Shown here one piece after another: positions 1 through 18,238 of a DNA stretch of 32,000 nt. Both the position numbers and the translations under genes were made by a program. Each line of letters opens with the position of its first letter. Position 1 is the stretch's first letter. The DNA is taken from positions 1-32,000 of the forward strand of contig JANRLW010000115.1 of NCBI GenBank assembly GCA_033762295.1. Direction: 5' to 3'. The notes under the pieces are model-generated. The model saw only the letters and a program-made list of their open reading frames with translations. It was not told the DNA's origin and did not search any database. The DNA comes from Capsulimonadales bacterium. GTDB lineage: Bacteria > Armatimonadota > Armatimonadia > Armatimonadales > Armatimonadaceae.

Positions 1-489
1 TTCGAGAACGCTCTGCGACTGATCCTGCGCTCGGCGCAGTACCCGCTGACCTACACGCGCGAAAGCGGCGTCTATGTGGTCAAGATCCGCGAGATCGCGA
101 CGACGACCAACGCGGCTCCTCCCCCGGCCCCGCCGGAGGACGACCGCAACGACCGGGTGTACCAGCCTCTGGAGACGATCCAGCTGGTGTACGTGGACCC
201 GGCGGACCTGTCGGCGGCGATCGGCCCGATCACCTTCATCCAGTATAACGTCCGTGGTCAGGGCATGGGTGGTGGCATGATGGGCGGTATGGGCGGTGGA
301 ATGATGGGTGGTATGGGTGGCATGATGGGCGGCATGGGTGGCGGAATGATGGGTGGTATGGGCGGCATGATGGGCGGCATGGGCGGTATGGGCGGCGGAA
401 TGATGGGTGGTATGGGCGGTGGAATGATGGGCGGAGGCTTCGGAGGCGGTATGATGGGCGGAGGCTTCGGAGGCGGACGCGGATTTTAA
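1..489 (+). CDS. Partial (5' end outside window) secretin-N/STN-like domain protein ending in a ~75-aa Gly/Met-rich low-complexity tail
   Basis: Frame 1 is open from base 1 (FENALRLILRSAQYPLTYTRESGVYVVKIRE...) and runs into track ORF 76..489. 'ALRLIL..L.Y..E.GVY.V' resembles the short secretin/TonB N-terminal (STN) motif. 'ETIQLVYVDPADLSAAI' resembles a secretin-N beta-alpha unit. TAA at 487-489 is followed by a hairpin. The family call is from motif memory only. Confidence 0.55.
   Translation, partial: FENALRLILRSAQYPLTYTRESGVYVVKIREIATTTNAAPPPAPPEDDRNDRVYQPLETIQLVYVDPADLSAAIGPITFIQYNVRGQGMGGGMMGGMGGGMMGGMGGMMGGMGGGMMGGMGGMMGGMGGMGGGMMGGMGGGMMGGGFGGGMMGGGFGGGRGF
256..486 (+). repeat. Degenerate in-frame tandem repeat encoding (M/G)n: GQGMGGGMMGGMGGGMMGGMGGMMGG...GGGFGGGMMGGGFGGGRGF
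   Basis: Direct reading shows reiterated atgggYggY/atgatgggYggY units with synonymous variation, ending in two GGGFGGG units just before the stop codon. Confidence 0.9.
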
Positions 490-1513: not shown

Positions 1514-2671
1514 TCAGGGTTCCTGACCGGTTGCACTTCTCCAGGCATTGAGGCTGTCATACTCCGTCGCACCCCAGATCGCATGGAAAAACGGTGTCAG
1601 ATAGCAGTTGTCCCGGAAGAGCAGGTTTGGCTGCAGGGCGAGGTCGGGCACTTTGATCATTGTCCGATTGCCCTGAGGAATGAACAGGTTTCTCCGAATG
1701 GTGACATTGACATTCGTCATTCCGTCCTTTACCTGCAGGACGCCAAACGGTCCCTCCGCCGTCGGAAGCGGGTTGTTGCCGAAGATGAAGGTGTTCCCCT
1801 CGACCAGAAGACCGTCCATACCTCCGCCAAAGGTAAACCCGCCGCCATTGCTTATTCCGTCGTTCACGCTGAGATTGTAACGGACTTTGTTGTTTCGCAT
1901 CGGACGGGCCGAGTAAAATTCGTAGACGAGGAAGCCACTGCCAAAGTTATCGTGGCTGTAATTATACTCCATGACGCAGTTGACGCAGCCGCCATCGAGA
2001 TCGAATCCACCGCCGTCGATGGTCATCGACCGGTTTCGATAACTCTCATTGAACCGGATCACGACGTTTTTGGATTCCCAGGCCCAGATACCGACCGGCC
2101 CGCCCCCCTTGTGATCGTTCTTCGCCCCGTTCTCGAAGGCGACACTACATTCGATCATTCCGTTCTCCACATCCGAGAGAACGATTCCGTTGCCGCTGTT
2201 ATTGCCTTTGTTGGCGAAACCGGTGTTTCGATAGGCGCAGCATCCGCCGACGTAGACGTTCTCATGGCTGTAGCCGGGGATGAGCGACTCCGGAAAATCC
2301 GGACCGTAGTAGGAGTTAAAACTTCCGTAGGTGTAAATCCCGCCGTCGCCATTGTCGTGGGCGACGACATTGGTAATCCGAACGTTTTTGAAACCGGTCT
2401 TGATCGCGACATAGTTCTCGTAATCGTAGACATACGCGCCGATCGAGACGCCGTTGACACCGAAACCGCTCACTTCGACGTTGTGGATTTGAACCGTATC
2501 CAGCTTGTTGCCGACGATCGGAATATCGGAAAAGAAGGAGATTCCGTCCTTTAGATTGCCATTATCGCGTCCGACCCCTACCGCATTTAGGTTCTCGATG
2601 CGGATTCCGGCGGTGTCGTAGGCGAAGCGCCTGGGCGAAAACCGGGAAAACGATCGCCGCAAGTATGGCAA
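1514..2671 (-). CDS. Right-handed parallel beta-helix repeat protein (pectate-lyase-fold body); probably the body of a pilin-like (prepilin-leader) protein, see 2562..2741
   Basis: The 385-aa track ORF starts at a TTG that is probably not the true start. It has reiterated beta-helix rungs (NVRITNVVAHDNGDGGIY, NGIVLSDVENGMIECSVAFENG, NVVIRFNESYRN, VNCVMEYNYSHDN, NNKVRYNLSVNDG, LLVEGNTFIFG). This frame is closed by a stop at 2681-2683. Confidence 0.75.
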   Translation of the reverse strand: MPYLRRSFSRFSPRRFAYDTAGIRIENLNAVGVGRDNGNLKDGISFFSDIPIVGNKLDTVQIHNVEVSGFGVNGVSIGAYVYDYENYVAIKTGFKNVRITNVVAHDNGDGGIYTYGSFNSYYGPDFPESLIPGYSHENVYVGGCCAYRNTGFANKGNNSGNGIVLSDVENGMIECSVAFENGAKNDHKGGGPVGIWAWESKNVVIRFNESYRNRSMTIDGGGFDLDGGCVNCVMEYNYSHDNFGSGFLVYEFYSARPMRNNKVRYNLSVNDGISNGGGFTFGGGMDGLLVEGNTFIFGNNPLPTAEGPFGVLQVKDGMTNVNVTIRRNLFIPQGNRTMIKVPDLALQPNLLFRDNCYLTPFFHAIWGATEYDSLNAWRSATGQEP

Positions 2672-2741
2672 TAATAGCGATTACTATTAAAAGTTCTATC
2701 AGCGTAAAGCCGAACCGCACGGATACACCGCTCCTACGCAT
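2562..2741 (-). CDS. 59-aa ORF encoding a prepilin-type N-terminal cleavage/methylation leader, out of frame with the downstream beta-helix ORF (likely its displaced N-terminus)
   Basis: My own translation from the ATG at 2741 gives MRRSGVSVRFGFTLIELLIVIAIIAILAAIVFPVFAQALRLRHRRNPHREPKCGRGRTR*. 'GFTLIELLIVIAIIAILAAI' is the classic type IV pilin-like G/FTLIE leader plus hydrophobic helix. GAAAGGG lies 10-16 nt upstream. The ORF is absent from the track only because it is under 60 aa. Confidence 0.6.
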   Translation of the reverse strand: MRRSGVSVRFGFTLIELLIVIAIIAILAAIVFPVFAQALRLRHRRNPHREPKCGRGRTR

Positions 2742-2938
2742 AGTTGGAACGCCCTTTCAACAGGAGATACCGGGATCCCCAGCGGAACCCGGTCGTTATA
2801 ACAGATACGCCCAATCCGAGTTTCGGCGAGATATGTTTGGCTGCTTAGGAAGACAAACCGAAGGAAGAAGAAATTTATTGTTCTTGACGACTTACCATAA
2901 GGTTTACGGGAAGGGCGTGAGCCTCGTGCGTAGGTGCG

Positions 2939-4738
2939 TTAGCCGCCGTGCGGAACGTCCACCGGACGCTCACGGTGCGTCATCACCCAGTCGCCGTTCT
3001 CCGCCAGAGACTCCTGCCCCAGTTCCGTCAGCAGTTGTCGCGCCTCCTCGTACTCGCCGGCGGCAAGACGCCGATGCAAACGATGTTCCGCCAGCACGAA
3101 AAGATGGCCCATCCGTTCATACTGCCTGGCATGCTCGGACAGAGCCCGTTTGTCGACGTAGGTATGCAGCGCCCCGGCCAGGGCGGCGAGCAGGAAAACG
3201 GCGATAATCAGCAGTTTGTGGGCCAGGGGATACCCGTGCATCCAATCCTGAACCGGCGACGGAATCAGTTCCGCCAGCGCCGTGAGCAGAGCGACCACCG
3301 GGCTGGTGGCGATCAGCACCTGAATCGCCTCCTCCAGACGTTCCAGACGGCTCTCCTCCCGATGCGTCGCCCGCTCGAAATACCGCGCCTGATCCGCCAC
3401 CCAGTGTTTCTGAACGTACCCGAGATGCTCCGCCGTTCCGAGCGGCGCGGTTCCCTCAGCGCCGGCATTCTCCGAAAGGTTCCGGATCGCGATCCGTATC
3501 CAGTCCAGTTCCCCCCGCTGCTTCCGCAGGTAGTTGTCGGCGACCGAGGTCCCGATTCCGGCAAGCCTCCAAAAAAACTCCACGCGCAACCCTTCGGCCA
3601 GGGCACGATAGTCCTGATACCGATCCTGCCACGCGCCCCGACTGACCGTCGAATACCAGAGAACCCAGGCGACACCGATCATACCCGGAAAGATCAAGCC
3701 CAGGCGAGCGTTATCCGGTGCTAGTTTCGCCGACAGTTCGAACGCGACGCCCGCCAGAAAGACGATGCCTATCAGGAGTTTCAGCATGCCAAAGGTGCGT
3801 TGCTGATACTCCTGCGCCAGCGTATCGGTCAGGGCGTAAGCCTGGCGAAGCGTCCGCAAGGCCGGGTCCAGAGTGGCGGCCGTTTCGTCGGCGATCAGAT
3901 ACCCGGCATTCCTCCGGAGTTTCGCCGACAGATCGGGGTCCGCCTCCGCCCGCAAGACATTCCGGTTGAACTCCTCCATATTGGCGAAGATGCGATCGAA
4001 CGTCGCCTGGGACTCCGGAATGGCCTCGCCCTCTTCCTCGTCCGTTACCTTCTTTCCGGGATAGTACCGGTTCAGGGTAAACGGCTCCCCTTTCAGTTCA
4101 GGATGGTGACGCCGTGGGGTGACGATATGGTAGACCGGCCCGGTCTCCGGCGGATCGAGCGTGCTGCCGGAAGCGGATTCGGTTTCGAGCAGGGTCGCCA
4201 GCAAACGTTCCGGTATCCCCTCATGCCGGTATTCCAGAATCGTGCCGGTGCCGCCCCCCTCGCCACGGGAAACGCCGTTCCACAGCGCGATCAGGATCTG
4301 GCAGTGACGGACCACGTACGCTCCGACCAGGGCATACTGCTCCGCGCGACACGCCGCGTCACAGACGTTCCCGGCGTCATTTCCGGGCAGATACGGCAGT
4401 TCGAGGGAACGATCGGCCCGCGCCAGTAGCGACCGGAACTCCTCCAGGGACTCGGAAGTCGAAAAATCCTTCTCGTATTCGGCCTGAACCATCGGCAAAG
4501 GCACAATCAACCGGACCCCACGCGCCAGAGCGATCCGGGCGACCAGGCGATCGGCTCCCTCGGCCAGCGGCGAAAGAATATGCAACGGGGTATGGGGATA
4601 TGCGGCTTCCAGTTCGGCGAAAAGGGCGGCGACCTGCGCTTCCAGTTTCGCGGTATCCTCGGGGCGCAGGTCGCGATGTCCGGTGATCCCGACCACCAGC
4701 GGTAAGGGACCATACTTTTTGTCGCCACGGTTTTGCAT
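2939..4738 (-). CDS. SLOG (LOG/DprA-like Rossmannoid) domain fused to two SLATT-like 2TM modules (4 predicted TM helices)
   Basis: I place the start at the ATG at 4738 (MQNRGDKKYG..., AAGGA about 10 nt upstream). The track start at 4960 would overlap the upstream gene with Arg/Pro-rich junk. N-terminal motifs are LVVGITGHRD, SPLAEGADRLVARIAL (GxD as in DprA/YpsA) and GEGGGTGTILEY (compare the LOG PGGxGTxxE motif). Hydrophobic pairs are FGMLKLLIGIVFLAGVAFELS / LGLIFPGMIGVAWVLWYSTV followed by WQDRYQDYRALAEGL, and IQVLIATSPVVALLTALAELI / KLLIIAVFLLAALAGALHTYV preceded by HWVADQARYFERA (DUF4231/SLATT-like). Confidence 0.7.
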   Translation of the reverse strand: MQNRGDKKYGPLPLVVGITGHRDLRPEDTAKLEAQVAALFAELEAAYPHTPLHILSPLAEGADRLVARIALARGVRLIVPLPMVQAEYEKDFSTSESLEEFRSLLARADRSLELPYLPGNDAGNVCDAACRAEQYALVGAYVVRHCQILIALWNGVSRGEGGGTGTILEYRHEGIPERLLATLLETESASGSTLDPPETGPVYHIVTPRRHHPELKGEPFTLNRYYPGKKVTDEEEGEAIPESQATFDRIFANMEEFNRNVLRAEADPDLSAKLRRNAGYLIADETAATLDPALRTLRQAYALTDTLAQEYQQRTFGMLKLLIGIVFLAGVAFELSAKLAPDNARLGLIFPGMIGVAWVLWYSTVSRGAWQDRYQDYRALAEGLRVEFFWRLAGIGTSVADNYLRKQRGELDWIRIAIRNLSENAGAEGTAPLGTAEHLGYVQKHWVADQARYFERATHREESRLERLEEAIQVLIATSPVVALLTALAELIPSPVQDWMHGYPLAHKLLIIAVFLLAALAGALHTYVDKRALSEHARQYERMGHLFVLAEHRLHRRLAAGEYEEARQLLTELGQESLAENGDWVMTHRERPVDVPHGG

Positions 4739-4769
4739 TTGTCTCGTCCTTTTCCTGTTGTTTCCCGAC

Positions 4770-6509
4770 TTAACGTCGGTAGACCTGGAACCCGGCCAGA
4801 GCAAGCGACTCGGGCAGTTCCCGAATGGTCTGCCGGTTGAACTCCCGGCCCTCCTCCGGCAGTTCCGGCCAGGGCACCAGGTTGGGATTGGTCTTCCGGT
4901 CCGGGTCGCGCGGTCCGAAAGTCCATCCCGCGGCCCGGCGCTCCGCCATCCAGCGCTCATGTTCCATCTGCGCCATCCGCTCGATCTCCTCGGGTGTGAA
5001 GGCGAAGGAGGACGCTTCCCAGTCGGTCAGGGGCGCGATATCGCAACCGATGGACCGCAGTTTGATGCCGATATCGTCCGCCTGGCGGCGATTGGACTCT
5101 TTCCACTCCTCCGAAAGGAACTCCCACGGCACGAGGGTCGGGTTCTGTTGTCCGGTCACGCCCGCCTTGTGCTGGTCGCGCAGGTAACGGGCATGAATGG
5201 CGTGTGCCAGCGCTTCATTAGCCCCGCCGAGAACGAATTCCGGCTGGCAGATCCGCTGCAAGAGGCCGATCGGATGCAGTTTCTCGAACCCGTGTCCGCT
5301 CGCCTGCGTCGATTCCAAAAGCGCTCCGAGGCCGGAATCCTGCGTCATCCGAAGCAGAATCGGTACGGGATGCTGGCGGAACCGGTGCAGGAGCGCCAAT
5401 CCGGCCGAAAGGCTCGCGCCGTCGTTCTCCAGACAGATATAGACGGCGGTGACGGTCACCCGTTTTGCTTCATCGTAGAGAAACGCGCCTCGATGAAACT
5501 CGGCGGAAGGCACGTCCATCACCAGGATTTCCGGATCGCACAGCGAGGCGAACCCCGAATCGTCGGGCCGAAGTTCCTCCAGGAGATCGCCCGTCCGGTC
5601 GATGACCGTGATCCGGAACCGTTCCGTTCCGCGACGGTGCTCGCGCCAGAGCCGAACGGAATGCAAAACGATATTTCGCGCCAATCGGCCTCCGCCGACC
5701 ACCAGGAGATGCGGCGTCCCTTCGACCCGTTCAAACGGCGGGTGCGCGGCCAACATCGCGCGCGCCCCGAGGTCGAAGACGTTGAAAAACTGGAGTCGGA
5801 ACGCGCCGACCGAAGAAATCTCCCAGCGCCGGAGCAAATACCACAGATCGGGATCGACGATATGCGCGGAGCAGGTCAGGGGGTTTCCCTTCCTGTTTTC
5901 GACCAGTTCGCGGGCGCGGGTCGCCACTTCCGCGTTTTTTCCGTCCTCGCCGCAGACGGCAATCAGGTAGCGGGCGCTGCCGACGTTGGCCTTGCGCAGC
6001 ATCTCCGGTTCGGCCGCATCTCCGACCAGCACGATCGCCCCGAGTTCCCGGCAGGCTTCCGACAGAACGTTGGTCTCGTTCTCCTCGATCGCCACGACCG
6101 TCAGGCCACGTTCCCGGAACGCTCGCGTCAGCAGATAGCCCTTCTCCCCCAGTCCGCAGACGACCACATGGTTGCGCAGACGGCGGAGACGCAGTCGCTG
6201 GAGCGAGTCGCTGCGGACAAAGTAGGCGGCAATCGCGGCGGTCGAGACGCCGAGGGTGCCGATCCCGACGAACATCAGGAAGACGGCGACGATCCGCCCG
6301 CCGATCGTCTTCGGGAAAATGTCTCCGTAGCCGATCGTGGTCATCGTTACCAGCGCCCACCAGAGGCTGTCCCCGTACGTCTGCACGGTTTCGTTTCGAC
6401 CGTGTTCGAAGTGGTAGAAGCCGGCGGCGGACAGCAGAGCGATGACAATCACCAGGCTGATGATGGTCAGAAGATAGGTACGCAGGGAGCCTCGACCGGA
6501 TTCATTCAT
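4770..6509 (-). CDS. Two-TM K+ channel (TIGYGD filter) with tandem Rossmann/TrkA-N (RCK-like) modules and two C-terminal RyR (ryanodine-receptor) repeats
   Basis: 579-aa ORF. TM1 is LLTIISLVIVIALLSAAGFY, the pore is SLWWALVTMTTIGYGDIFP and TM2 is IVAVFLMFVGIGTLGVSTAAIAAYF. There is a GxGxxG (VVVCGLGEKGYLL) and a second LLVVGGGRLARNIV. The RyR-type repeats are ALAHAIHARYLRDQ...NPTLVPWEFLSEEWKESNRRQADDI and MAQMEHERWMAERRAAGWTFGPRDPDRKTNPNLVPWPELPEEGREFNRQTI. The stop lies 31 nt before the next start. Confidence 0.85.
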   Translation of the reverse strand: MNESGRGSLRTYLLTIISLVIVIALLSAAGFYHFEHGRNETVQTYGDSLWWALVTMTTIGYGDIFPKTIGGRIVAVFLMFVGIGTLGVSTAAIAAYFVRSDSLQRLRLRRLRNHVVVCGLGEKGYLLTRAFRERGLTVVAIEENETNVLSEACRELGAIVLVGDAAEPEMLRKANVGSARYLIAVCGEDGKNAEVATRARELVENRKGNPLTCSAHIVDPDLWYLLRRWEISSVGAFRLQFFNVFDLGARAMLAAHPPFERVEGTPHLLVVGGGRLARNIVLHSVRLWREHRRGTERFRITVIDRTGDLLEELRPDDSGFASLCDPEILVMDVPSAEFHRGAFLYDEAKRVTVTAVYICLENDGASLSAGLALLHRFRQHPVPILLRMTQDSGLGALLESTQASGHGFEKLHPIGLLQRICQPEFVLGGANEALAHAIHARYLRDQHKAGVTGQQNPTLVPWEFLSEEWKESNRRQADDIGIKLRSIGCDIAPLTDWEASSFAFTPEEIERMAQMEHERWMAERRAAGWTFGPRDPDRKTNPNLVPWPELPEEGREFNRQTIRELPESLALAGFQVYRR

Positions 6510-6545
6510 TGAAAGGCATCATGGCGAATTTTCTCGATCGGTTCT

Positions 6546-6848
6546 TCACGGGCCGGGGGAAATGCCGTTCTTTTCCAGGCGATAGCCGAGAGCGGTGATC
6601 ATCCGTAACGTCTCCATCGCGGTGTTCCGATCGTACTCCTTTTCGATCTCGGACAGTTCTTCGTACGGGATCAGGCAGGGATGCTCCTTCCGCGTATCGT
6701 CCCGTTTCGGACCGTATCGCCAGCCCTCGGACAGCCGCTGCCTGGCCCACACCTCGTGCGTGTTCCGGGCGAGCAGTTCGGTCAGTTCGACCACTTCCGG
6801 CGTCAGAGTGACCCGGGACGTATCCAGGGGTTCGGGTGTATATTCCAT
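6546..6848 (-). CDS. Stand-alone single RyR-domain protein (100 aa)
   Basis: LARNTHEVWARQRLSEGWRYGPKRDDTRKEHPCLIPYEELSEIEKEYDRNTAMETL matches the RyR-repeat pattern (HE.W....GW.YG..RD...K.HP.L.PY.EL.E.EK..DR) and the second repeat of the adjacent channel. It ends 36 nt upstream of the channel start. Confidence 0.8.
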   Translation of the reverse strand: MEYTPEPLDTSRVTLTPEVVELTELLARNTHEVWARQRLSEGWRYGPKRDDTRKEHPCLIPYEELSEIEKEYDRNTAMETLRMITALGYRLEKNGISPGP

Positions 6849-6921
6849 CTATCGACTCGCTTTGCCTTTTTCCTCATATCGGCATTCCGGAAGCGGACCC
6901 GAAGGTATGAGACGGTATCCG

Positions 6922-8613
6922 TCATCCTTTAAATCGCAGGTCGATATGGGTTCCGTCACAGAACGGCTTGTTTTGCGACCCGCCGCAACGACAGAGGGTG
7001 ACCCGATTACGGATTTCCGCCGGTTTGCCATCGGCGCGCTCGACCGTCAATCCGCCCATTGCCCAGAGCGGACCGTTGCCGATCACCGAGATCTCCTGCG
7101 GCAGGTGCGGTTCGATTGTCTCGCCGGACGGCAGCAGTTCGTAGGTCAGGGCGCCGCTCGGGCAGCGTTCGATCATCGCGATCACCTGCGATCGCACGGC
7201 GATGTCGTCGGTCTTTTCGGCCATCTCCCAGACATCGGTCACTTTATTTTCGCAGAAGGTGGCGAACGCGCAGAGGGTCCGGTCATGCTTCACAGTCAAC
7301 TGCGTGCCCGGATACGGCACGGCGCGATCGGCACGCGGCGCAGGATCGGCGGTCTCGGTTCCGTCGAAGCGCTCTGCGACATGGCTGCCATCGCAGTACG
7401 GTTTGGCATCCGACTTGCCGCAACGGCAGAGGGCGCAGAACTCGCCGGTATCCACCGGACCCTCGCGCCGCCAGGTAAGCGGTTCGCCCTGTTCAGAAAC
7501 GATCGCGCTCTTGCGCCGGATCGGGATTCCGCCCTCCACAATGTAGGGGCCGTTCGGACGAACGGCGATCCGGGGCGATTTTCGCCGTCCGTAGCCGGGC
7601 GGGACATACTCGAATGTCAGGCCGACCGTCGTTTCTCCGTCCCCCGAGGGCATCCGCACCAGTTCCAGAGCGCGGTATCGTACCTCGTACATCAGGCCGA
7701 CGGCCACCGCCATTCGTCCCGGTTCGCCGTTGAAGCTGCGGTGCATCTCCCGGAGCATCACGGAGTAAGCGCCGTTGAAATCCTCCAGGGCGATCCGTTG
7801 CGGACTGTCGACCGCGAAATCGGCGGTTCGGCCGTTCGCGCGTACCGGGAAAACGGCCTCCCAATCGACCGGGAACGGTTCGCCGGTCGGCCCGGATTCC
7901 GGCGTGTCCCCCTCCTGATAGCTGCGCTCGACCAGCAGTTCGTGGAATCGGAAATAGTGCGACAACTCCTGCCGTTCCGGATCGAACATCGTGCGGTCGC
8001 CGTCCCAGATCGAATGATGGTCCATCCCCTCGCCCTGCTCGACGATCTCTTTCAGGGCGGCGAGAGCCGAGTTCAGGTCGAAGACCGGCAGCACCTTGCC
8101 GCTGCCGTAGTAATGGAAGTTTTTGTCGGTCAGCTGTCGGGCAGGGTTCCCCGTAAAGACGCTCTCCTCGCCCAGTTCGTCACAGAGACGGATCAACCCC
8201 TGTTCGAGCGCCTCGTAAAACTGGCCGATGGTTTCGTAATTATCGTCCTCCGGCGGGGCGTCGGCGGGCGCGGGCATCTCAATGCGCAGAACCGTCTCGA
8301 CGAACTCCTTCGAAAACCGTCCGACCGGGACCTGAAACGCCCGATTACTGTGGGTCATGTAGCAGGGATAGGTCGGAATAAATGCCGGATGATCGAGGCT
8401 GGGCGTGCCGCCGATGGCATTGAGAACGTTGGCTGCCAGCGTCATGTGCAGCATCTCCTCGATGGCGACGCTGAGCAGCACCTTCGCCGCCTCGCGATTC
8501 CGGTCGGGATGCAGAGAATACAGCGCGGTCAGGTACGGCGGGAGGGTCGAATGCTCCAGTTCGATCGCCCACTGGAGATGGGTCCGCAGGTCCTCGATGT
8601 TCCGAATAGCCAT
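6922..8613 (-). CDS. Ferritin-like (di-iron ExxH) domain protein fused to an Fe-S region with two CDGSH motifs
   Basis: N-terminal WAIELEHSTLPPYLTALYSL and AIEEMLHMTLAANVLNAIGG give two ExxH motifs. C-terminal CRCGKSDAKPYCDGSH and CRCGGSQNKPFCDGTH are canonical CDGSH. Between them lies a Cys-rich segment (TLCAFATFCENK...ERCPSGA). I prefer the start at the ATG at 8613 (MAIRNIEDL, GGTGGA upstream); the in-frame alternative at 8724 cannot be excluded. Confidence 0.75.
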   Translation of the reverse strand: MAIRNIEDLRTHLQWAIELEHSTLPPYLTALYSLHPDRNREAAKVLLSVAIEEMLHMTLAANVLNAIGGTPSLDHPAFIPTYPCYMTHSNRAFQVPVGRFSKEFVETVLRIEMPAPADAPPEDDNYETIGQFYEALEQGLIRLCDELGEESVFTGNPARQLTDKNFHYYGSGKVLPVFDLNSALAALKEIVEQGEGMDHHSIWDGDRTMFDPERQELSHYFRFHELLVERSYQEGDTPESGPTGEPFPVDWEAVFPVRANGRTADFAVDSPQRIALEDFNGAYSVMLREMHRSFNGEPGRMAVAVGLMYEVRYRALELVRMPSGDGETTVGLTFEYVPPGYGRRKSPRIAVRPNGPYIVEGGIPIRRKSAIVSEQGEPLTWRREGPVDTGEFCALCRCGKSDAKPYCDGSHVAERFDGTETADPAPRADRAVPYPGTQLTVKHDRTLCAFATFCENKVTDVWEMAEKTDDIAVRSQVIAMIERCPSGALTYELLPSGETIEPHLPQEISVIGNGPLWAMGGLTVERADGKPAEIRNRVTLCRCGGSQNKPFCDGTHIDLRFKG

Positions 8614-8775
8614 CTGGTTTTTCCACCGGCGGCAGGCCGGGTATCCGTCGGTAAGAATTCGTGACGTCCCTATTTTATCGTGATCCGGGGGCGGGTAATC
8701 GGGCGTTTGCGGCGGGTCTTTCAAAAGTCAGGGAGCGGTCGGGCAACCGTTCTCCTCCGTACGACGATCTTCCCG

Positions 8776-8802
8776 CCTCCGCCGCCACAAAAGCGGCGGA
8801 GG
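8776..8802 (-). other. GC-rich stem-loop after the AGE-like gene (possible terminator or RNA-stability element; no U-tract)
   Basis: Perfect 10-bp stem cctccgccgc (8776-8785) / gcggcggagg (8793-8802) with a 7-nt loop, about 20 nt downstream of the stop at 8822. Confidence 0.4.
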
Positions 8803-8821
8803 CAGGATACGGACGATCCGT

Positions 8822-10708
8822 TTACACGGGGACGATACGGACTTTGACCTTCATCTCCGGCTTGATCTGCTGCAGTTTGACGCCACCGGCGCGGCGGCGT
8901 TCGAGCAGGTCGGTCGGGTGCAGGGACGCGACATCCGGCAGGGTGACGGTCAGCGCGTCGGCGTCGAAGTTCGTATATTCCTCGCCGTTGATCCACACCG
9001 CGTCCAGCTTGACGCTGCCCGGCGGCAGGATGTCCGGAGAGACGCGCAGGATATTGTCCTTGAACGCGCCCGGCTGCGGCTTGAAGTAGAAGTCCATCGG
9101 CTGCTTCATCACCAGCAGGTTGCTGTAAACGGCGGCAAGGTAGCAGAGTTCCGTCGAGTGGTACGCGCCCATCGAGTGGCTACCCTTGTCGCGTTCGTTG
9201 CCGAGCAGGTACGGCAGACCGTTCGCCAGGACGTTGAAGTAGACCGCGCCGGAATCGGTATCGAGGAACCAGGCGTTGTAGAACGCCGCCGACTCCTCGG
9301 CCAGCTTCTTGTAGGTCGGGTTCTCCAGGCATCCGGCCAGGATGAAGTAGGCGAGAATCCCCTGCTCCTGCTGCCACCAGGCCTTGCGGTCGTGGAACGC
9401 CAGCCGGTGGAACGTCTCTCCCTCGCCCAGTTGTCGCTCCAGCACGTCGTACCAGCCGCCCCGCTGCTTGTCCATCGCGACGGCCGGCATGGTATCGGCC
9501 AGTTTGGTGGCCAGGGCGACATACTTCTCCTTCGGCAGCGCCGAGTTCATCCGCATCAGGTTCCAGGCGATCTTCAGGTCATGACCGCCGACCGCGCGAT
9601 CCTGCTGCCAGCCCCAGGTCTTGTCCGGGCTCCAGTCCTCGTAGAACTTCTCCTGTACGAACGGGCTACCGTCCTTCGCGGGGAACTTCTCCTCGATGAG
9701 GTCGAAGACATACTCCAGGAAGTCCAGATACTTCTGCTCGCCGGTCGCCAGGTAGAGGTTGATCAGGTAGGCCGGAGCATGGTCACCGACCGAGTTCCAG
9801 TTCTTGCGAGCGCAGTTGTGGGCAAGCGATTCCGCCTTCGGGTCGAACGTATCGGTCGTGATGTGCGAGTAGTAGCCGGCCTGCGCGGACTCATCCTTGA
9901 AATACCGGTTGAACAGATTGATCGTCTTCTCGGTATCGGCCAGGATGCTGGGATCGCCGGTGATACGGTAGGTCTGGATCGGGCCGGCGAGAGCGTAGAT
10001 CTGCTCGTACGCCGGAATCGCGCCCCAGTCGTCGCCGAAGAGCGAGCCCAGCACTTCATGGACGCCATCCGGTTGCATATCGAGGGCGTGCAGCCAGTAG
10101 ACGACGCCTTCGTTCTCCTTGTCGCGCTTGCAGATATTGCGCTGCAGGTACTTGGTGCCCTTCTCGGCCGCTTCCAGGAAGCGGTCTTCGCCGGTCATCA
10201 GGTAGGCGGTCGCGAACCCGTAGACGGTGCGGGAGATGGTGTCGGTCTCCTGCAGGGTGGTTCCGAGCTTGCTGCCGTCCAGGTAAAGCTGGGTGCGATA
10301 CTTGGTGTAGTCGATCGGGCCGCCCTCGAACTGCGAGTTGATATAGAAGTCGGCCAGTTCGCGCACCTGGTTGATCCACCAGTCCTGCTTCTCGAATACG
10401 AAATCCCCGGCCTTCTTGCCCGCGAAGACAAGATGCTTCACTTCGAACTTGTAATCGCCGCCTTCCGGGTAGTAAATGCCGTAGGCGAAGACGTAGTTCC
10501 CCACGGACAGCGCCTCGCTCAACTGCCCCATGGCGTCCTGGTAGTTCTCGCCCAGATTGCGGACATATTCGCCGAAGGTGGAGGAGGTCAGTTTGGCCTC
10601 AAATTCCTTATCGCCGGGCGTCTTCAGTCGGAAGGTACCCTGGCTCAGGTCCGCCGCCGTCACATAACCGGCGATGGTATCGGAAAACGTAAAGTCGATC
10701 TGATTCAT
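8822..10708 (-). CDS. AGE-superfamily ((alpha/alpha)6-barrel, N-acylglucosamine/cellobiose 2-epimerase-like) protein with extra N- and C-terminal domains
   Basis: 628-aa ORF with AAGGGA upstream of the ATG at 10708. The core has segments reminiscent of AGE-family repeats (TVYGFATAYLMTGEDRFLEAAEKG, AYEQIYALAGP, GGHDLKIAWNLMR, RGGWYDV, AWWQQEQGILAYFILAG). The superfamily call is moderate and the specific activity is unknown. Confidence 0.55.
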   Translation of the reverse strand: MNQIDFTFSDTIAGYVTAADLSQGTFRLKTPGDKEFEAKLTSSTFGEYVRNLGENYQDAMGQLSEALSVGNYVFAYGIYYPEGGDYKFEVKHLVFAGKKAGDFVFEKQDWWINQVRELADFYINSQFEGGPIDYTKYRTQLYLDGSKLGTTLQETDTISRTVYGFATAYLMTGEDRFLEAAEKGTKYLQRNICKRDKENEGVVYWLHALDMQPDGVHEVLGSLFGDDWGAIPAYEQIYALAGPIQTYRITGDPSILADTEKTINLFNRYFKDESAQAGYYSHITTDTFDPKAESLAHNCARKNWNSVGDHAPAYLINLYLATGEQKYLDFLEYVFDLIEEKFPAKDGSPFVQEKFYEDWSPDKTWGWQQDRAVGGHDLKIAWNLMRMNSALPKEKYVALATKLADTMPAVAMDKQRGGWYDVLERQLGEGETFHRLAFHDRKAWWQQEQGILAYFILAGCLENPTYKKLAEESAAFYNAWFLDTDSGAVYFNVLANGLPYLLGNERDKGSHSMGAYHSTELCYLAAVYSNLLVMKQPMDFYFKPQPGAFKDNILRVSPDILPPGSVKLDAVWINGEEYTNFDADALTVTLPDVASLHPTDLLERRRAGGVKLQQIKPEMKVKVRIVPV

Positions 10709-10748
10709 GTCGTTCCCTTTTCAGTGCGGCAAGGAGATGGTGGGAGGT

Positions 10749-12926: not shown

Positions 12927-12992
12927 GTTCGGTCACTCTTTCCGGAGATTAGGAATGGGCGCATCGTTCGGATACGCGTCCGTTGACTCTTG

Positions 12993-13421
12993 CTACCCCT
13001 CCAGGGCGGGCGGATTCTCCTGATCGGTATAGCCCTGGCTGATCTCGACGATATTCCCGTCCGGGTCGGCGACCCAGACGGTACGCCAGCCGGGGATGAA
13101 GGCGTCGAAATCGAACGGGCCGAAGGTGACTTTCGCCTCCTCGCCCATCGCCGCCAGTGTCGCGTCCACATGATCGACCTGGAAGGCGAGATGTCGAATG
13201 GCCGGATAGGCCGGTCCGTCGTTCCCGGCGGGCGGCGCGGGCGCGTCGCCTTTGGCCTGAAACAACTCCAGATAGACATCGCCGGAGCGGACGAAAACGA
13301 TCTGTTCCTCCCCAAGCGGGATGACCCGGGCGCGTACGAAACCGAAATGCTTCGCATACCACTTTTCCGTCGCGATGGGGTCGGCGCAGGAAAGGGCAAT
13401 ATGGGAAAAACGCATTGCCAT
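12993..13421 (-). CDS. VOC family (glyoxalase/bleomycin-resistance/dioxygenase fold) protein
   Basis: 142 aa. FSHIALSCADPIATEKWYAKHFGF ... IRHLAFQVDHVDATLAAM ... WVADPDGNIVEI is the typical paired beta-alpha-beta-beta-beta pattern. Confidence 0.75.
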   Translation of the reverse strand: MAMRFSHIALSCADPIATEKWYAKHFGFVRARVIPLGEEQIVFVRSGDVYLELFQAKGDAPAPPAGNDGPAYPAIRHLAFQVDHVDATLAAMGEEAKVTFGPFDFDAFIPGWRTVWVADPDGNIVEISQGYTDQENPPALEG

Positions 13422-13464
13422 TTGCTTCAGTCTCCTGATTCGGTCGGATTTGTCTCGAAAAACG

Positions 13465-14064
13465 TCAGGCAGTCGCCGCCGCCTCTTTCTCCCGCATGCG
13501 TTCGATGATGGCGCGGGCCAGCAGGTGGCAATGCCCCCCGGTGCGCGCCGTGATCAGGTCCTCATCCACCACCACATCGGCGTCGACATAGACCGCGCCC
13601 ATATTGCGGGCGTCGCCATACAGATTGTTGTGGACGACGACATTCCGTCCGCGCACCAGTTCGGGCATCGGGGCGACCAGCCACATTCCGTGACAGATAA
13701 TACCCTTGATTACTTCCCGGTTGGCGAACGCGCGGGCGAGCAACTGGGTCGCGGGCGGCACCTTCCGGACATCCTCCGTATAGCGGAGACGGTCGGCGAC
13801 CATTCCGGCCGGGACGATGATCGCCGAGTACTCGGCCAGCATCTCGTCGGTGAACGCTTCGAAGCTTTCCTCCGGGAACGTTCCCAGGACGTGGTACTCA
13901 TGTCCCCGGAAGTCGATATGCTGTTGTCCCCAGAGGCGGGTCAGGAAGTGAACGTCGATTCCTTCCTCGGCAAAACGATGCTGATAATACCAGATTTCCG
14001 GTTCGTAGAAATCCGACTCGATCAAAATGCCGATCTTCTTGCCGGCAAGGCTGACGTCGCTCAT
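13465..14064 (-). CDS. DJ-1/PfpI family (class I glutamine-amidotransferase-like) protein
   Basis: KKIGILIESDFYEPEIWY, AIIVPAG, and the nucleophile elbow GIICHGMWLVA. AAGAAGGA precedes the ATG at 14064. Confidence 0.75.
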   Translation of the reverse strand: MSDVSLAGKKIGILIESDFYEPEIWYYQHRFAEEGIDVHFLTRLWGQQHIDFRGHEYHVLGTFPEESFEAFTDEMLAEYSAIIVPAGMVADRLRYTEDVRKVPPATQLLARAFANREVIKGIICHGMWLVAPMPELVRGRNVVVHNNLYGDARNMGAVYVDADVVVDEDLITARTGGHCHLLARAIIERMREKEAAATA

Positions 14065-14101
14065 GATTTGGTTCCTTCTTAGCGGCTCACTTCCCGCGAC
14101 T

Positions 14102-14995
14102 CTATTCGGCGGTTTTCTTTCGCGATTTTTCCGGTCCGACGTAGATGAAGTCGGTCATTTCGAAGACATTCACATTGCGGGCGGTATCATTCCGGATGAT
14201 CCAGCGGCGCGGATACCAGCCCGGCTTCGGGTAGACCGCCGGCTGCGGAATGAGGTCCGTTTCAAACTGATCGGGTTCCACCAGACCGGTCGGGCTGTCA
14301 AACGCCTTGCGGACGTTGGTACCGACGACCATCCCGTTCATATGCGCGTTGTAGTATAGAAAGTTCTGCCCGATGGTGATCCGTGCGGGTTGCCCGACCG
14401 GCTTGTTCGGAATATCATAGCTGACGCCGACCCCCGGAACGACCGTGTCGGGTACCCCACGGGTGACCGTCGGCGGCACCTCCTCGGCTACGGGATACTG
14501 CAGTTCGTTGACGAATCCGGGACTGGGCTGCTGCGGCGGATTCAGCAAAAAAACGGCATGAAAGTGTTCCGGTTCTTGCTCGGGACGATACTGGTCGATC
14601 GGATGGCCGGTGAAGTAAAAGAGGGCCATCTGCTTGAATGCGGTAACGGACGCCTCCGGCGGCAACGGAATAAAGTAGACATTCGGTCCTTCATCCGTAA
14701 TCGCTGTCGGCGGCTGGTTATCCCGCCCGGTTCGGTAGAGTTCGAACCCGACCGACTGGGGAACGCCACGATCCAGCGTCACGAAACTGCGTCCGAGCCG
14801 CGATGGCCCGCTCGGGCCATTGAAGATCGGCGGTTCGGGACCGAAGAAGGTTCCGGTCAGCCCGGACTGTGCGCTACCGAGGTCGCCGCTTCCGCTGCCG
14901 CACCCGGCGACCACGCCCGCCAGACCGACGCCGACAAAGGTGCAGGCGATCAACGTTCGGAAGACCCGGTTTTTGAATGTTTTTTGCTTGGTCAT
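14102..14995 (-). CDS. Uncharacterised lipoprotein, family A copy 1 (paralog of 16201..17073)
   Basis: Signal peptide plus lipobox (FVGVGLAGVVAGC). It shares blocks with the paralog: GRSFVTLDRGVP / GRTFVTLNNGIP, YFIPLPPEA / FYLPLPPEA, GVGVSYD / GVGVAYE, GQNFLYY / GQNYFYF, PAVYPKPGWYP / PVVYPKPGYYP, VFEMTDF / VFKLTDF. Confidence 0.7.
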   Translation of the reverse strand: MTKQKTFKNRVFRTLIACTFVGVGLAGVVAGCGSGSGDLGSAQSGLTGTFFGPEPPIFNGPSGPSRLGRSFVTLDRGVPQSVGFELYRTGRDNQPPTAITDEGPNVYFIPLPPEASVTAFKQMALFYFTGHPIDQYRPEQEPEHFHAVFLLNPPQQPSPGFVNELQYPVAEEVPPTVTRGVPDTVVPGVGVSYDIPNKPVGQPARITIGQNFLYYNAHMNGMVVGTNVRKAFDSPTGLVEPDQFETDLIPQPAVYPKPGWYPRRWIIRNDTARNVNVFEMTDFIYVGPEKSRKKTAE

Positions 14996-15064
14996 CTTTT
15001 CCTTACTTCTCTCCGGAGACGGCGTTGCGAGCGTCCGCCGCTCGCAACGCCATCCGAACTCGCA

Positions 15065-16126
15065 TTACACAAAGGCGACATAGCCACCGAACGGTAACCC
15101 CGAGACCACGGCTCCCCTGGGTTGGCCGGTGTTCCCGTCAAACCGCAGGATCGATCCGCCGCCCAGGGCGCTGACGATGTCGCCTGCCAGCACGCTTCCG
15201 TAGCGATCCGGCGTGGTAAAACTGCCGACATACAGGTCGCCATCCGGGCCGTAGGTTATGCCGACCGGGAACGGACAGGTGGCGAAGGTGCCGACCTCGC
15301 TTCCGCTGTCCAGGTCATAGCGCACGACTCGCCCGGTGAAGTGTTCGACGACCAGCAGGTCGCCGCTCGGATGAAAAGCCATCGTGAACGGGATTTTGAG
15401 ATCCCGGGCCGTATATTTCACCAACCGTCCCGTCTCCCCGTTGAGGCGCGAGATGAAGTCGGTTTCGTTCGTCAGCGGTGAATACTGGAGCGTTGAGGAG
15501 ACATAAAAGTCCCGATCCCGCGGGTTGACGATGATTCCGAACGGCGCATAAGCGGGGGCGAAGGTTCCGATGCGGTCCCCGGTACGGGCATCGTACCGCT
15601 CGATCGAATCCGTGCCCTTGCCCACATTGCCGTTCAGCGAGGGCGCATTGACGACATAAAGAAAGCCATCCGGGCCAATCACGCCGCTGTGCGGGGTGAT
15701 CAACCCCCGCGGTGGCGTCGGCAGGGAGCGCAGAAATGCCCCGGAGCCTTTGTCGTACATGAAGGCGGCATCGCCGCCCGGACTGAAGACGAAGACATTG
15801 TTATTGCTTCCGGCAACGATCCCTGCGGTCGAAATCCCCACACCTCGCGACACGGCGAAGGTGCCCTGATTCCGAAACGTTCCCGGATCGTACGATTCCA
15901 CAGTTCCGAAAAGAAAAGTGGAAACCAGCATTCGACTGGGCGGCGCGGGCACCCGGTACAGTGACCCACTGCGGCTCCCGCACCCGGTCAGCAGCGACCC
16001 GCCGAGACTCAGGGCGGCCGCCCCACCCAGTGTGTCTCTCAAAAAGGCGCGACGGGTGGTTCGGCGGGCATCTTCCGATGCCTGCCCCGTCATCGCATCT
16101 CCAACTTCGCGGAGAATCGAACTCAT
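15065..16126 (-). CDS. Tat-signal lipoprotein, NHL/SMP-30-like beta-propeller, family B copy 1 (paralog of 17096..18220)
   Basis: Twin-arginine motif plus lipobox (TRRAFLRDTLGGAAALSLGGSLLTGC). Repeated blade-like units (GPDGFLYVVNAPSLNG, DFYVSS, PSGDLLVVEH, GPDGDLYVGS). A strong RBS (AAAGGGGAGAAAAACAAA) precedes the ATG at 16126. Confidence 0.7.
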   Translation of the reverse strand: MSSILREVGDAMTGQASEDARRTTRRAFLRDTLGGAAALSLGGSLLTGCGSRSGSLYRVPAPPSRMLVSTFLFGTVESYDPGTFRNQGTFAVSRGVGISTAGIVAGSNNNVFVFSPGGDAAFMYDKGSGAFLRSLPTPPRGLITPHSGVIGPDGFLYVVNAPSLNGNVGKGTDSIERYDARTGDRIGTFAPAYAPFGIIVNPRDRDFYVSSTLQYSPLTNETDFISRLNGETGRLVKYTARDLKIPFTMAFHPSGDLLVVEHFTGRVVRYDLDSGSEVGTFATCPFPVGITYGPDGDLYVGSFTTPDRYGSVLAGDIVSALGGGSILRFDGNTGQPRGAVVSGLPFGGYVAFV

Positions 16127-16200
16127 TTTGTTTTTCTCCCCTTTGTATGCGCCCGTTGGCGTAAACCCATCCTGCGCACCATCATTATGCTTTTCCGTTC

Positions 16201-17073
16201 CTAAAGGAAGCGTCCCGCCGGAACGAAATCCGTCAGTTTGAAAACGTGGTAGCTTTTATCCGAATCCCAGGTGACCGTGCTTCGAGTCGGATAGTACCCC
16301 GGTTTCGGGTAGACGACCGGTTGCGACATCGGCAGAACGATCGTCCGTTCCTCCTTCAAGAACCCGTAGGTGGCCAGCATCCCGACACCGTTCAGATGCC
16401 CCTTGAAGTAAAAATAGTTCTGACCGAAACTATTCCATCGTGGCTGGACGTGCGCCGAGGAAGGGTCCTCGTAGGCGACCCCGACGCCCCCTTCCGCCAG
16501 TTCGATATTGCCGGGGATTCCGCTTCCGATCAGGTACCCGGCCGGAATCTCCTCGGAGTTCGTTACCGGAGCCGTCTCATCGCGCAGTCCTTCGGAGGCG
16601 GCTCCGGGGGGAGCGATACAGAACGCCGCCAGGATGTGAGGAATGTCGGCGATCCCGACCGGGCGACGGCCATTCGCCCAGTTCAGCAACACCATATACT
16701 TGAACGGGGTCGTGTTGGCCTCGGGGGGCAGCGGCAGATAGAACGTATCCTCGGTATCGAACTTCGGATACGGAAGGGTTTTCAGCGCACGATCCGGCAG
16801 TTCCCAGCCAAGTTCGGTCGGAATGCCGTTGTTCAGCGTGACGAACGTTCGTCCGAGATCGACGGCGATGTCGCCGACCGGCTGCAGATTGACCGCACTG
16901 ACAAAACGCCCGGTACGTCGAACCGACAGAGTAGGATCGTCCTTTCCGCCGCCGCATCCGGTCGCAAAAACGCCCGAGGCTCCGAGCGCCGCACTGCCAA
17001 CGCCATAACGGACGATCAGATCCAGCATTTCCCGCCGACTGTAGAAGCGGTTTTCGGTTGCTATTCGTTCCAT
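16201..17073 (-). CDS. Uncharacterised lipoprotein, family A copy 2
   Basis: I place the start at the ATG at 17073 (MERIATENRFYSRREMLDL...GVFATGC, an RR-containing signal plus lipobox), with GAAAGAGAG upstream and 22 nt after the upstream stop. The track start at 17232 would overlap the upstream gene. Paralogy blocks are listed under 14102..14995. Confidence 0.7.
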   Translation of the reverse strand: MERIATENRFYSRREMLDLIVRYGVGSAALGASGVFATGCGGGKDDPTLSVRRTGRFVSAVNLQPVGDIAVDLGRTFVTLNNGIPTELGWELPDRALKTLPYPKFDTEDTFYLPLPPEANTTPFKYMVLLNWANGRRPVGIADIPHILAAFCIAPPGAASEGLRDETAPVTNSEEIPAGYLIGSGIPGNIELAEGGVGVAYEDPSSAHVQPRWNSFGQNYFYFKGHLNGVGMLATYGFLKEERTIVLPMSQPVVYPKPGYYPTRSTVTWDSDKSYHVFKLTDFVPAGRFL

Positions 17074-17095
17074 AACTCTCTTTCTCGTTCCGTCC

Positions 17096-18220
17096 TCAGG
17101 CGAACGCCAGGTAGCCGGAGAAAACGAGTTTCTCTGCCAGCGCGCCGAAAGGTTTGCCGTTGGCGCCGTTGTAGCGCAGAATACGACCTTTGTTTTTCGC
17201 CGTGTCGAGATCGTTGTTGAAAAGCGCCTCAATGCCTTTCTGGTCCGTAAAACTGGTCATATAGGCGTTTCGATCCGGGCCGAACTGAATATCGATGCAG
17301 AAGTCGGCATTGGCAAAGGCATCGACGATCTTCCCGGTACGCAGATCGAACAGGGCGACACGGCTGTAAAAGTGCTCGATCACCATCAGGTAGCCGTCCG
17401 GGTGGAAGTTGACGTTGAACGGCACCTTGACATCCCGGGCGACATAACCCGTGAACCGTCCGGCGGAGTCGAACCGGGCGACATAGTCGGACCCGAGCGC
17501 GAACGGGAAGTAAGCAAGCGAGGCCGTTACATAAAGGTTACCGTCCGGCCCCCAGGAGATGCCGAACGGCGCGCGAAGTTCCGGCGTGTCATTCCCGTCG
17601 ATAAATCGGCGGATATGTTCGCCATCGGGGGTGTAGATCTCGACGGTGTCCGGGCCGATCCCGAGCTGGTTGTTGAGGGAAGGCGCATTCACGACGTACA
17701 GGTTGCCGTCGGGACCGACCGAGCCGCAGTGAGGCGTCTGGGTAATCGGCAGTTTCACCTCACGGGTAATCGCGCCGGTCACTCCGTCGCAGATGAAGAA
17801 ACGGTTGCTGCCGGGGCTGAAGGCGTACACCTGTCCCTGCGGACCGACGCGTACCCCGGCAATGGTCGTACCCCGGTCGACCTGGCGGAAAAACGTGCCG
17901 AGGGACGCCCCCGTCCGGGCGTCCAGCGCCTCGATCGTCCCCTCGATAAAGGTGGAGACGAGCACCCGGGTTCCCGCCGGCATCGCCCGTCCCTTGTCCA
18001 CCGACTTCGAGGAGCCGCATCCGGCCAGCAACGTTGCGCCCGACGCGCCGAGCGCCAGCGTGCTCGCCGCGGCCCCCTCCAGAAACTCCCGCCGGGTCCA
18101 CGCTCCCTCCGGACGGGCGACGCTCGCCGGTTGAGGCAGTCGCCCGGTCTGACGCCGGATCATCCAGGACCGCAGTATCGACAGATACCGCATCTTCTCC
18201 GCTTCGCTTATGCCCTTCAT
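17096..18220 (-). CDS. Tat-signal lipoprotein, NHL/SMP-30-like beta-propeller, family B copy 2
   Basis: TRREFLEGAAASTLALGASGATLLAGC. It is colinear with copy 1 (VLVSTFIEGTIE / MLVSTFLFGTVE, GPDGNLYVVNAPSLNN / GPDGFLYVVNAPSLNG, FHPDGYLMVIEHF / FHPSGDLLVVEHF, C-terminal GYLAFA / GYVAFV). The exact start is uncertain (three in-frame Met in the first 20 codons). Confidence 0.7.
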   Translation of the reverse strand: MKGISEAEKMRYLSILRSWMIRRQTGRLPQPASVARPEGAWTRREFLEGAAASTLALGASGATLLAGCGSSKSVDKGRAMPAGTRVLVSTFIEGTIEALDARTGASLGTFFRQVDRGTTIAGVRVGPQGQVYAFSPGSNRFFICDGVTGAITREVKLPITQTPHCGSVGPDGNLYVVNAPSLNNQLGIGPDTVEIYTPDGEHIRRFIDGNDTPELRAPFGISWGPDGNLYVTASLAYFPFALGSDYVARFDSAGRFTGYVARDVKVPFNVNFHPDGYLMVIEHFYSRVALFDLRTGKIVDAFANADFCIDIQFGPDRNAYMTSFTDQKGIEALFNNDLDTAKNKGRILRYNGANGKPFGALAEKLVFSGYLAFA

Positions 18221-18238
18221 GACTTTGACCTTGCGCTC

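Follow-up and report, generated by a model that had tools for sequence, protein, structure and literature searches.

Using a 32,000-nucleotide (nt) stretch of a Capsulimonadales (Armatimonadota) genome (contig JANRLW010000115.1, positions 1 to 32,000, hereafter the window), we analysed a gene on its minus strand, the target, whose product an earlier note, drawn from the DNA letters alone, had described as a SLOG sensor fused to four transmembrane (TM) helices. Our results demonstrate that the target is a real gene and confirm this SLOG plus four-TM architecture, and they make the protein a member of a large, already-noticed and uncharacterised class. We consider it fairly probable that the protein acts as a ligand-gated, membrane-disrupting effector for signals derived from nicotinamide adenine dinucleotide (NAD), here in a variant accompanied by RyR-domain and K+ channel partners. 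The layout of the gene is as follows (aa, amino acids; AF2, AlphaFold2).

2939..4738, minus strand: target gene, 599 aa plus stop; SLOG domain, helical linker, SLATT_3/DUF4231-like two-TM module, SLATT_1-like two-TM module, conserved C-terminal tail
4049..4705, minus strand: SLOG domain, residues ~12-230; YpsA/YAcAr/DprA-like Rossmannoid with GxTGHRD, AEGAD and GGT motifs (Foldseek, BFVD, Pfam YAcAr, motif conservation)
3866..4018, minus strand: helical linker, residues ~241-291; helices 242-266, 268-281 and 284-287 (AF2) and an invariant N258 (alignment)
3539..3865, minus strand: membrane module 1, residues ~292-400; long helix into TM1, TM2, then a near-invariant DYRALAEGxRVxxFW helix (Pfam/NCBIfam, hydropathy)
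3728..3793, minus strand: TM1, residues 316-337 (hydropathy)
3650..3712, minus strand: TM2, residues 343-363 (hydropathy)
3053..3433, minus strand: membrane module 2, residues ~436-562; long helix HWVxDQxxYF into TM3, TM4, then a KRALSEHxxQYxRM helix (SLATT_1 matches)
3260..3328, minus strand: TM3, residues 471-493 (hydropathy)
3158..3226, minus strand: TM4, residues 505-527 (hydropathy)
2942..3052, minus strand: C-terminal helix and tail, residues 563-599; motif ELGxEALxENGDWxxxHRERPxxVP at residues 572-599, 2942..3025 (alignment)

From end to end, the target product matches with 100% identity a 'hypothetical protein' that NCBI annotates in a Capsulimonadales metagenome-assembled genome (MAG; P0001), an AGGA-rich stretch lies 8-17 nt 5' of its ATG at 4738, and a 31-nt gap separates this ATG from the stop codon of the upstream channel gene. 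A longer open reading frame (ORF) of 673 aa, starting at an ATG at 4960, was dropped, as it overlaps the channel gene and departs from the 599-aa NCBI annotation; homologues do not support it either, since family alignments start at residues 8-12 of the 599-aa form. The conservation counts and the AF2 model (mean predicted local distance difference test score 93.1, predicted TM-score 0.92) were based on an alignment of 112 family sequences. The motifs quoted in the earlier note are all present in the target, and most of them are conserved in this alignment. A scan of 2400..9200 for promoters and terminators was uninformative, and the family profile hidden Markov model (HMM) found nothing relevant among PDB sequences.

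Fold and motifs agree in assigning the N-terminal domain to the SLOG superfamily, as had been proposed. Indeed, residues 14-225 form an alternating strand/helix Rossmannoid in the AF2 model, for which the top Foldseek match in the PDB was B. subtilis YpsA (2nx2; E 4.2e-5, target TM-score 0.63, probability 1.0), followed by DprA, ShosA, the LOG-like TM1055, MCP (Moco carrier protein) and TRPM4/2/8; the BFVD matches were DprA-like and 'YspA cpYpsA-related SLOG' viral proteins. The superfamily motifs are all found: a Gly-rich loop after strand 1 (GITGHRD, with G20 and H21 invariant and R22 and D23 in 111/112 sequences), a GxD-type motif (AEGAD, with A59 and G61 invariant and D63 in 111/112) and a GGxGT-like phosphate loop (GGT, with G162 in 106/112, G163 in 110/112 and T164 in 112/112); G17 and T19 of the first motif and E60 and A62 of the second are likewise invariant or at least 90% conserved. 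The Pfam YAcAr model matched the target weakly (E 0.042, 14.1 bits, cut-off 28.2) and the best relative, P0101, just below the gathering cut-off (27.7 against 28.2 bits), P0101 showing an additional weak DNA_processg_A match. The first loop of YpsA, which we take to read TGYKP, is similar to TGHRD in the target. YpsA, YAcAr and DprA proteins are soluble and act in cell-division regulation or DNA processing, whereas the target domain is fused to membrane modules.

The earlier note had also recognised a LOG-type GGxGT motif, of which only GGT is kept. The LOG signature PGGxGTxxE lacks its Pro (position 161 is V, E or I across the alignment), the position of the catalytic Glu (residue 169) holds Glu in only 4/112 relatives and mostly R, K or Q, and LOG-like structures rank under YpsA and DprA. 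The signature having failed, the SLOG domain is therefore of the YpsA/YAcAr/DprA kind and not of the LOG family proper, and ligand binding would be much more likely than LOG-type catalysis. These observations bear on the explanation that the domain is a LOG-like N-glycosidase, which would make or destroy a signal by releasing the base from a nucleotide. LOG enzymes do share the SLOG fold, and the invariant or near-invariant H21, D23, D63, Y88 and D91 could in principle be catalytic; against this stand the missing Pro and Glu, and the closest structures, YpsA and DprA, which are non-enzymatic or ligand-binding SLOG proteins. The precedent of ThsA, whose SLOG domain binds 3' cyclic ADP-ribose (3'cADPR; 10.64898/2025.12.03.692087), is likewise one of ligand binding, and we find the glycosidase explanation very improbable. 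Note that ThsA was not among the top 50 Foldseek matches of the domain.

The membrane half contains the four TM helices that had been predicted: the four hydrophobic segments are conserved in family-averaged Kyte-Doolittle hydropathy and fall within long helices of the high-confidence AF2 model. In this model, very long helices (residues 292-339 and 436-491) lead into the first TM segment of either hairpin, and conserved helices come after both hairpins. Taking the SLOG domain as cytoplasmic, and with an even number of TM helices, we infer from this topology that all conserved soluble parts would lie in the cytoplasm. The claim of a SLATT-like module occurring twice stands insofar as each half matches SLATT-clan profiles, but the two match different subfamilies, DUF4231/SLATT_3 and then SLATT_1. 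Module 1 of the target reached E 0.006 and 17.4 bits with Pfam DUF4231 (cut-off 24.7), E 0.17 with Pfam SLATT_3, and E 0.001 and 19.1 bits with NCBIfam SLATT_3 (cut-off 45); the same region exceeded the gathering cut-off in full-length homologues of ~40% identity (P0098, P0110, P0061, P0062 and P0096), and it is these homologues that carry the assignment of the helix-TM-TM-helix unit to the SLATT clan. For module 2, SLATT_1 was matched by 18/34 isolated segments (best E 3.9e-5; the target weakly, E 0.049), and no other family was matched by more than 5 of the 34; scores across relatives were 24-26 bits, against a gathering cut-off of 26.3. In P0110 and P0051, positions 6-122 of the 122 in the SLATT_1 profile aligned at 25.8-26.0 bits, just below this cut-off, on the same chain as a DUF4231 or SLATT_3 match. 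Read transitively via Pfam, these matches make the target a predicted tandem of SLATT-clan modules of different subfamilies in one chain. The BFVD list also held a giant-virus SLATT protein with probability 1.0 at an E-value of 0.28.

The internal duplication that the earlier note proposed is not supported, and it would fall if that note's own terms were taken literally. Alignment of half against half with hhalign gave E 0.022 (112 sequences) and 0.09 (322 sequences), against 0.03-0.15 for reversed-profile controls, i.e., no homology signal over the controls, and the two modules could just as well stem from separate SLATT genes that became fused as from duplication. The W/Y/R-rich helices described as a pair exist as motifs, but their positions are not equivalent: WQDRYQDYRALAEGL follows TM2, and HWVADQARYFERA precedes TM3, being the N-terminal helix of the second membrane module. 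The membrane half gave no significant Foldseek match in the PDB, and ClyA and SmhB at E ~0.2-0.4 were treated as noise. Downstream of TM4, tail residues G574, L578, W584, H588 and R589 are invariant; this C-terminal motif is without known counterpart, and autoinhibition, oligomerisation and ligand contact are candidate roles.

The earlier note implied that this architecture is rare, which does not agree with the size of the family or with the existing listing of a 'SLOG and 4TM' class among candidate Thoeris effectors. A word-indexed search gave more than 2174 matches, the best 120 of which are mostly ~580-620 aa long and 39-63% identical to the target. In an exhaustive phmmer scan of 1.84 billion cluster representatives, the number of matches was 7642 for E<=1e-3 and fell to 4825 for E<=1e-10 and to 1463 (50%-identity clusters) for E<=1e-30; among the best 150, most are ~560-640 aa long and aligned over their full length. 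With 1463 representatives at E<=1e-30 and mostly full-length alignments among the best 150, the observed architecture is far beyond chance. At least 584 genomes encode a relative in a scan of one genome per species, with hosts in Acidobacteriota, Ignavibacteria/Kapaibacterium, Eremiobacterota, Proteobacteria, Planctomycetota, Verrucomicrobiota, Desulfobacterota and others, and including the cultured Solidesulfovibrio alcoholivorans and Scleromatobacter humisilvae. N-terminal 'extensions' of the relatives in two loci (L040 and L048) look like ORF-calling artefacts and were set aside.

The neighbourhood of the family was studied in 87 loci (the window, 6 from exact-protein look-ups and 80 from genome contigs) by ORF calling, clustering and a Pfam scan of the immediate upstream and downstream neighbours. 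TIR_2 was the commonest Pfam family among these neighbours (9/80 upstream, 13/79 downstream), and the next in frequency were TPRs, RyR, TrkA_N/ion channel, guanylate cyclase and nSTAND1. With a locally built TIR HMM, TIR-like ORFs were found within ~8 kb in 41/87 loci and at 300 nt or less from the family gene in 20/87, on the same strand in 11 of those 20. The usual adjoining genes encode TIR-TPR, TIR-only (~420 aa), TIR-NACHT/NB-ARC-TPR and DUF4062-NACHT-TPR proteins, and the TIR neighbours are scattered over the entire neighbour-joining tree of the family. In one locus, from a Gimesia sp. MAG (L053, 4935-9746, plus strand), a single uninterrupted ORF of 1604 aa joins TIR_2, NB-ARC, many TPRs and the complete SLOG and double SLATT architecture, which provides a link of the Rosetta-stone type between TIR and SLOG-SLATT proteins. 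Altogether, the neighbourhood pattern of the family is that of an effector for TIR-generated signals.

Proteins with RyR domains are a second recurrent partner. TrkA_N-RyR proteins with or without a K+ pore, or RyR-only proteins, adjoin family members in 10/87 loci on at least six separate branches, and TIR genes are present as well in all five of these loci that fall outside the clade of the window: L028 (TrkA_N-RyR and RyR-only), L054 and L057 (TrkA_N-RyR), L053 (P-loop-RyR) and L066 (RyR twice). In L053, a 1041-aa P-loop (nSTAND5-like) plus RyR protein lies directly 5' of the 1604-aa fusion. In L054, a Gammaproteobacteria MAG, four TIR genes stand in a row 3' of the family member (9100-15032, plus strand), with TrkA_N-RyR on its 5' side; this run is similar to the arrangement of multiple TIR genes that has been reported for type III Thoeris. 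The gene of a 288-aa, 6TM Ion_trans channel without RyR lies 31 nt 3' of the family member in an Ignavibacteriota MAG (L017, 9810-10673, plus strand). In L004, the family member sits between a TPR-S/MAP3K_TRAF_bd/guanylate-cyclase protein (5951-7915, plus strand) and a protein kinase-TIR fusion (9853-12459, minus strand), and cyclase neighbours occupy 4/80 upstream positions. Comparison of the DUF4062 N-terminal domains of neighbouring STAND NTPases with TIR by hmmsearch and hhalign showed no relation.

In the window, the target is the last gene of a same-strand run that opens with a ferritin-like/CDGSH gene and continues with a 100-aa RyR gene and a channel gene. These partners are the following.

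4770..6509, minus strand: K+ channel-TrkA_N-RyR gene; 2TM channel, TrkA_N, middle domain and C-terminal RyR; ends 31 nt 5' of the target
~6216..6452, minus strand: channel pore domain with filter TMTTIGYGD (Pfam Ion_trans_2 5.5e-19)
~5820..6167, minus strand: TrkA_N domain of the channel (Pfam TrkA_N 1.7e-18)
~4782..4985, minus strand: C-terminal RyR domain of the channel (Pfam RyR 5.8e-17)
6546..6848, minus strand: stand-alone RyR (R12-type) protein, 100 aa (Pfam RyR 1.6e-36); 36 nt 5' of the channel gene
6922..8724, minus strand: ferritin-like/Fer4_19 protein with two CDGSH iron-sulfur fingers, 600 aa; directly 5' of the RyR gene

Both genes carry RyR domains of family PF02026 according to the Pfam model, and solved RyR repeat structures were also matched: the 100-aa protein matched a B. 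thetaiotaomicron protein (3nrt) at 6.6e-37 and an RyR2 repeat at 1.7e-21 in the PDB. A May 2026 preprint shows nanomolar binding, or else hydrolysis, of 2'/3'cADPR by phage RyR (R12, PF02026) proteins, the ligand/catalytic residues of RyDEP being H75, W78, H100 and D117 (PMC13232231). The 100-aa protein carries His31, Trp34, His56 and Asp73 at identical spacing, and the stand-alone protein of L028, whose gene holds the same position as in the window, also keeps all four residues. The channel-borne domain keeps the His-x2-Trp pair, while Asn stands in for both the second His and the Asp; since His and Trp are retained and the other two positions are Asn, its sequence suggests binding rather than catalysis. 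The window proteins differ from the phage ones in being host-encoded, with a K+ channel and a SLATT protein as partners, and in not being viral evasion factors.

The channel-target pair is kept in the closest relatives (63% identity), where the two genes overlap by 4 bp (L002 and L003) or lie 7 nt apart (L005 and L006), and the canonical TMTTIGYGD filter occurs only in the window and these close relatives. In L002 (1-13134) and L005, the pair stands amid genes for NB-ARC-TPR, a 237-aa protein without Pfam match, a DUF4062-nSTAND1-TPR NTPase and a 304-aa protein, with an additional caspase-PEGA-TPR gene in L002; this conflict-system-like neighbourhood is absent from the window. Such tight linkage, together with the 31-nt gap in the window and the recurrence of ion-channel-type partners, including the 6TM Ion_trans gene of L017, speaks for another explanation, in which the SLOG-4TM protein would not itself form a pore and would instead be a regulatory subunit, anchored in the membrane, that binds the signal and thereby opens or blocks the neighbouring K+ channel or TrkA_N-RyR protein, its SLATT hairpins serving as anchors or interaction surfaces. 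The lack of a significant Foldseek match to known pore-formers is also in line with it. However, 77/87 loci have no channel or RyR partner and yet keep the full four-TM architecture and the invariant membrane-proximal motifs, and the TrkA_N-RyR partners of L028, L054 and L057 have two N-terminal hydrophobic segments and no GYG, i.e., no K+ selectivity filter. We regard this role as distinctly unlikely.

Under the effector reading that we favour, the target would be an inner-membrane protein with a cytoplasmic YpsA/YAcAr-type SLOG domain as ligand sensor and tandem SLATT-type 2TM hairpins, one DUF4231/SLATT_3-like and one SLATT_1-like, as output. An NAD-derived nucleotide (such as a cADPR isomer or another ADP-ribose (ADPR) derivative), which in most relatives a neighbouring TIR-domain protein would make, would bind in the SLOG pocket; the long helices, unbroken between the cytoplasm and TM1 or TM3, would pass this event on to the membrane; and the SLATT hairpins would then rearrange or oligomerise, leading to a leaky membrane and to growth arrest or abortive infection. 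The cluster in the window would add two predicted modules binding ADPR signals, the free RyR protein, possibly a buffer, a sponge or a signal-terminating glycosidase, and the RyR domain on the TrkA_N-regulated K+ channel, and the cassette would let one signal class act on the membrane in two ways, through K+ flux and through a SLATT pore. Because no producer lies within the window, the signal would have to be made in trans or beyond the window edge, or the producer may have been lost. A more specific version, in which the cassette is a self-contained effector module for cADPR-type signals with host RyR domains as channel sensor and as buffer or terminator and with TIR acting in trans, is a tentative possibility that we hold in some doubt.

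Several observations weigh against an immune effector and bring in the explanation of a non-immune ion-homeostasis module, in which the SLOG-4TM protein and the RyR/TrkA_N channel would sense endogenous NAD/ADPR-type metabolites or nucleotides and tune K+ flux or membrane potential to conditions such as redox or energy stress, with no dedicated TIR producer and no cell killing. Regulation of K+ transport by bound NAD(H) or other nucleotides is the classical role of TrkA_N/RCK domains, which fits this explanation. The TIR HMM found no TIR-like ORF in the 32-kb window, so that the Thoeris arrangement of a producer next to its effector is not seen here; the 2.9 kb 3' of the target encode a beta-helix protein and an Asp/Arg hydroxylase, and the remainder of the window is mostly metabolic or unannotated and not defence-island-like. 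Many family members are stand-alone chromosomal genes, especially in Ignavibacteria and Kapaibacterium, and a large Ignavibacteria/Kapaibacterium clade (including L001) is without TIR neighbour. No model of Pfam, NCBIfam or PADLOC reached its cut-off on the target protein, and PADLOC gave no match on the target or on either partner gene. In addition, E. coli was not protected by either of two operons, from Streptomyces sp. GKU 895 and Ca. Nitrospira nitrosa, of the published 'SLOG and 4TM' class, to which the present family may correspond (10.64898/2025.12.03.692087). The ferritin-like/CDGSH gene in the same-strand cluster is of redox type and would suit ion homeostasis, but it is conserved in no related locus; moreover, the prevailing neighbours in the family at large are TIR, STAND NTPase and caspase genes, and the TIR-STAND-SLOG-SLATT fusion of L053 points to conflict systems. 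We judge ion homeostasis to be rather unlikely.

Among known systems, a close one by description is the '4TM SLOG' or 'SLOG and 4TM' class that a December 2025 preprint on TIR systems lists as a putative Thoeris effector (10.64898/2025.12.03.692087). As described there, it shares with the target a SLOG domain, four TM helices and, in the family, a gene beside a TIR gene; the window copy differs in having RyR/K+ channel partners in place of a TIR neighbour. When the TIR sequences of the two published '4TM SLOG' operons were compared by phmmer with the ORFs lying up to ~6 kb from family genes, nothing matched at E<=1e-3. The effector reading also follows the logic of Thoeris type I, with ThsA (SIR2-SLOG), and of type VII, with the SLATT protein ThsH, which responds to cADPR (10.64898/2025.12.03.692087): in both, a TIR-made cADPR isomer is sensed by the effector, and the target would merge a ThsA-type sensor and a ThsH-type output on one chain. 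Unlike the target, ThsA has a SIR2 output where the target has two SLATT modules behind a YpsA/YAcAr-like SLOG domain, and ThsH has no SLOG domain, its modelled ligand site lying between SLATT protomers. The cassette in the window further resembles the animal TRPM2 (SLOG-type MHR1/2) and RyR channels in the association of SLOG and RyR modules with ion channels. The SLATT effectors (Pfam SLATT_1-6, DUF4231) of CBASS and other conflict systems, reportedly described by Burroughs et al. in 2015, have in common with the target a 2TM hairpin with flanking helices and a predicted role as nucleotide-responsive pore-formers, whereas the target has two modules of different subfamilies in tandem, four TM helices and an extra invariant C-terminal tail. 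Partnerships of host RyR channels with SLOG-4TM proteins go unmentioned in both preprints, the accessible parts of the text and supplements of the TIR preprint holding no RyR/K+ channel partner, and none turned up in our literature search. As far as could be found, neither the tandem of two SLATT subfamilies nor the repeated partnership with RyR/K+ channel genes has been described before.

If the effector reading is true, the family would represent a major unvalidated class of TIR-signal effectors, with at least 1463 50%-identity clusters in many phyla, in a family that has no Pfam model of its own and is annotated as 'hypothetical'. The RyR link is the more interesting part: binding or cleavage of 2'/3'cADPR by RyR proteins was demonstrated in 2026 for phage evasion factors only, and here host genomes repeatedly set RyR domains, borne on K+ channels or as 100-aa stand-alone proteins, beside a SLOG-SLATT protein and TIR genes. 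This offers a testable system for asking whether RyR domains gate channels on cADPR-type signals, an open question for animal ryanodine receptors. Should the cassette reading be true as well, it would give bacterial RyR domains a first cellular role and provide a prokaryotic antecedent of animal channels responsive to ADPR or cADPR, namely TRPM2 (SLOG) and RyR (R12). Models of how many SLATT units build a pore also have to accommodate this tandem of two different subfamilies.

Elsewhere in the window, Pfam gave no convincing match at E<=0.01 for six ORFs of 253-428 aa at 13321..19525 (five on the minus strand), the one at 17096..18220 showing weak WD40-like traces only. At 76..489 (plus strand), a 137-aa ORF consists in its C-terminal half of nearly nothing but GGMMGGMGG-type Gly/Met repeats.

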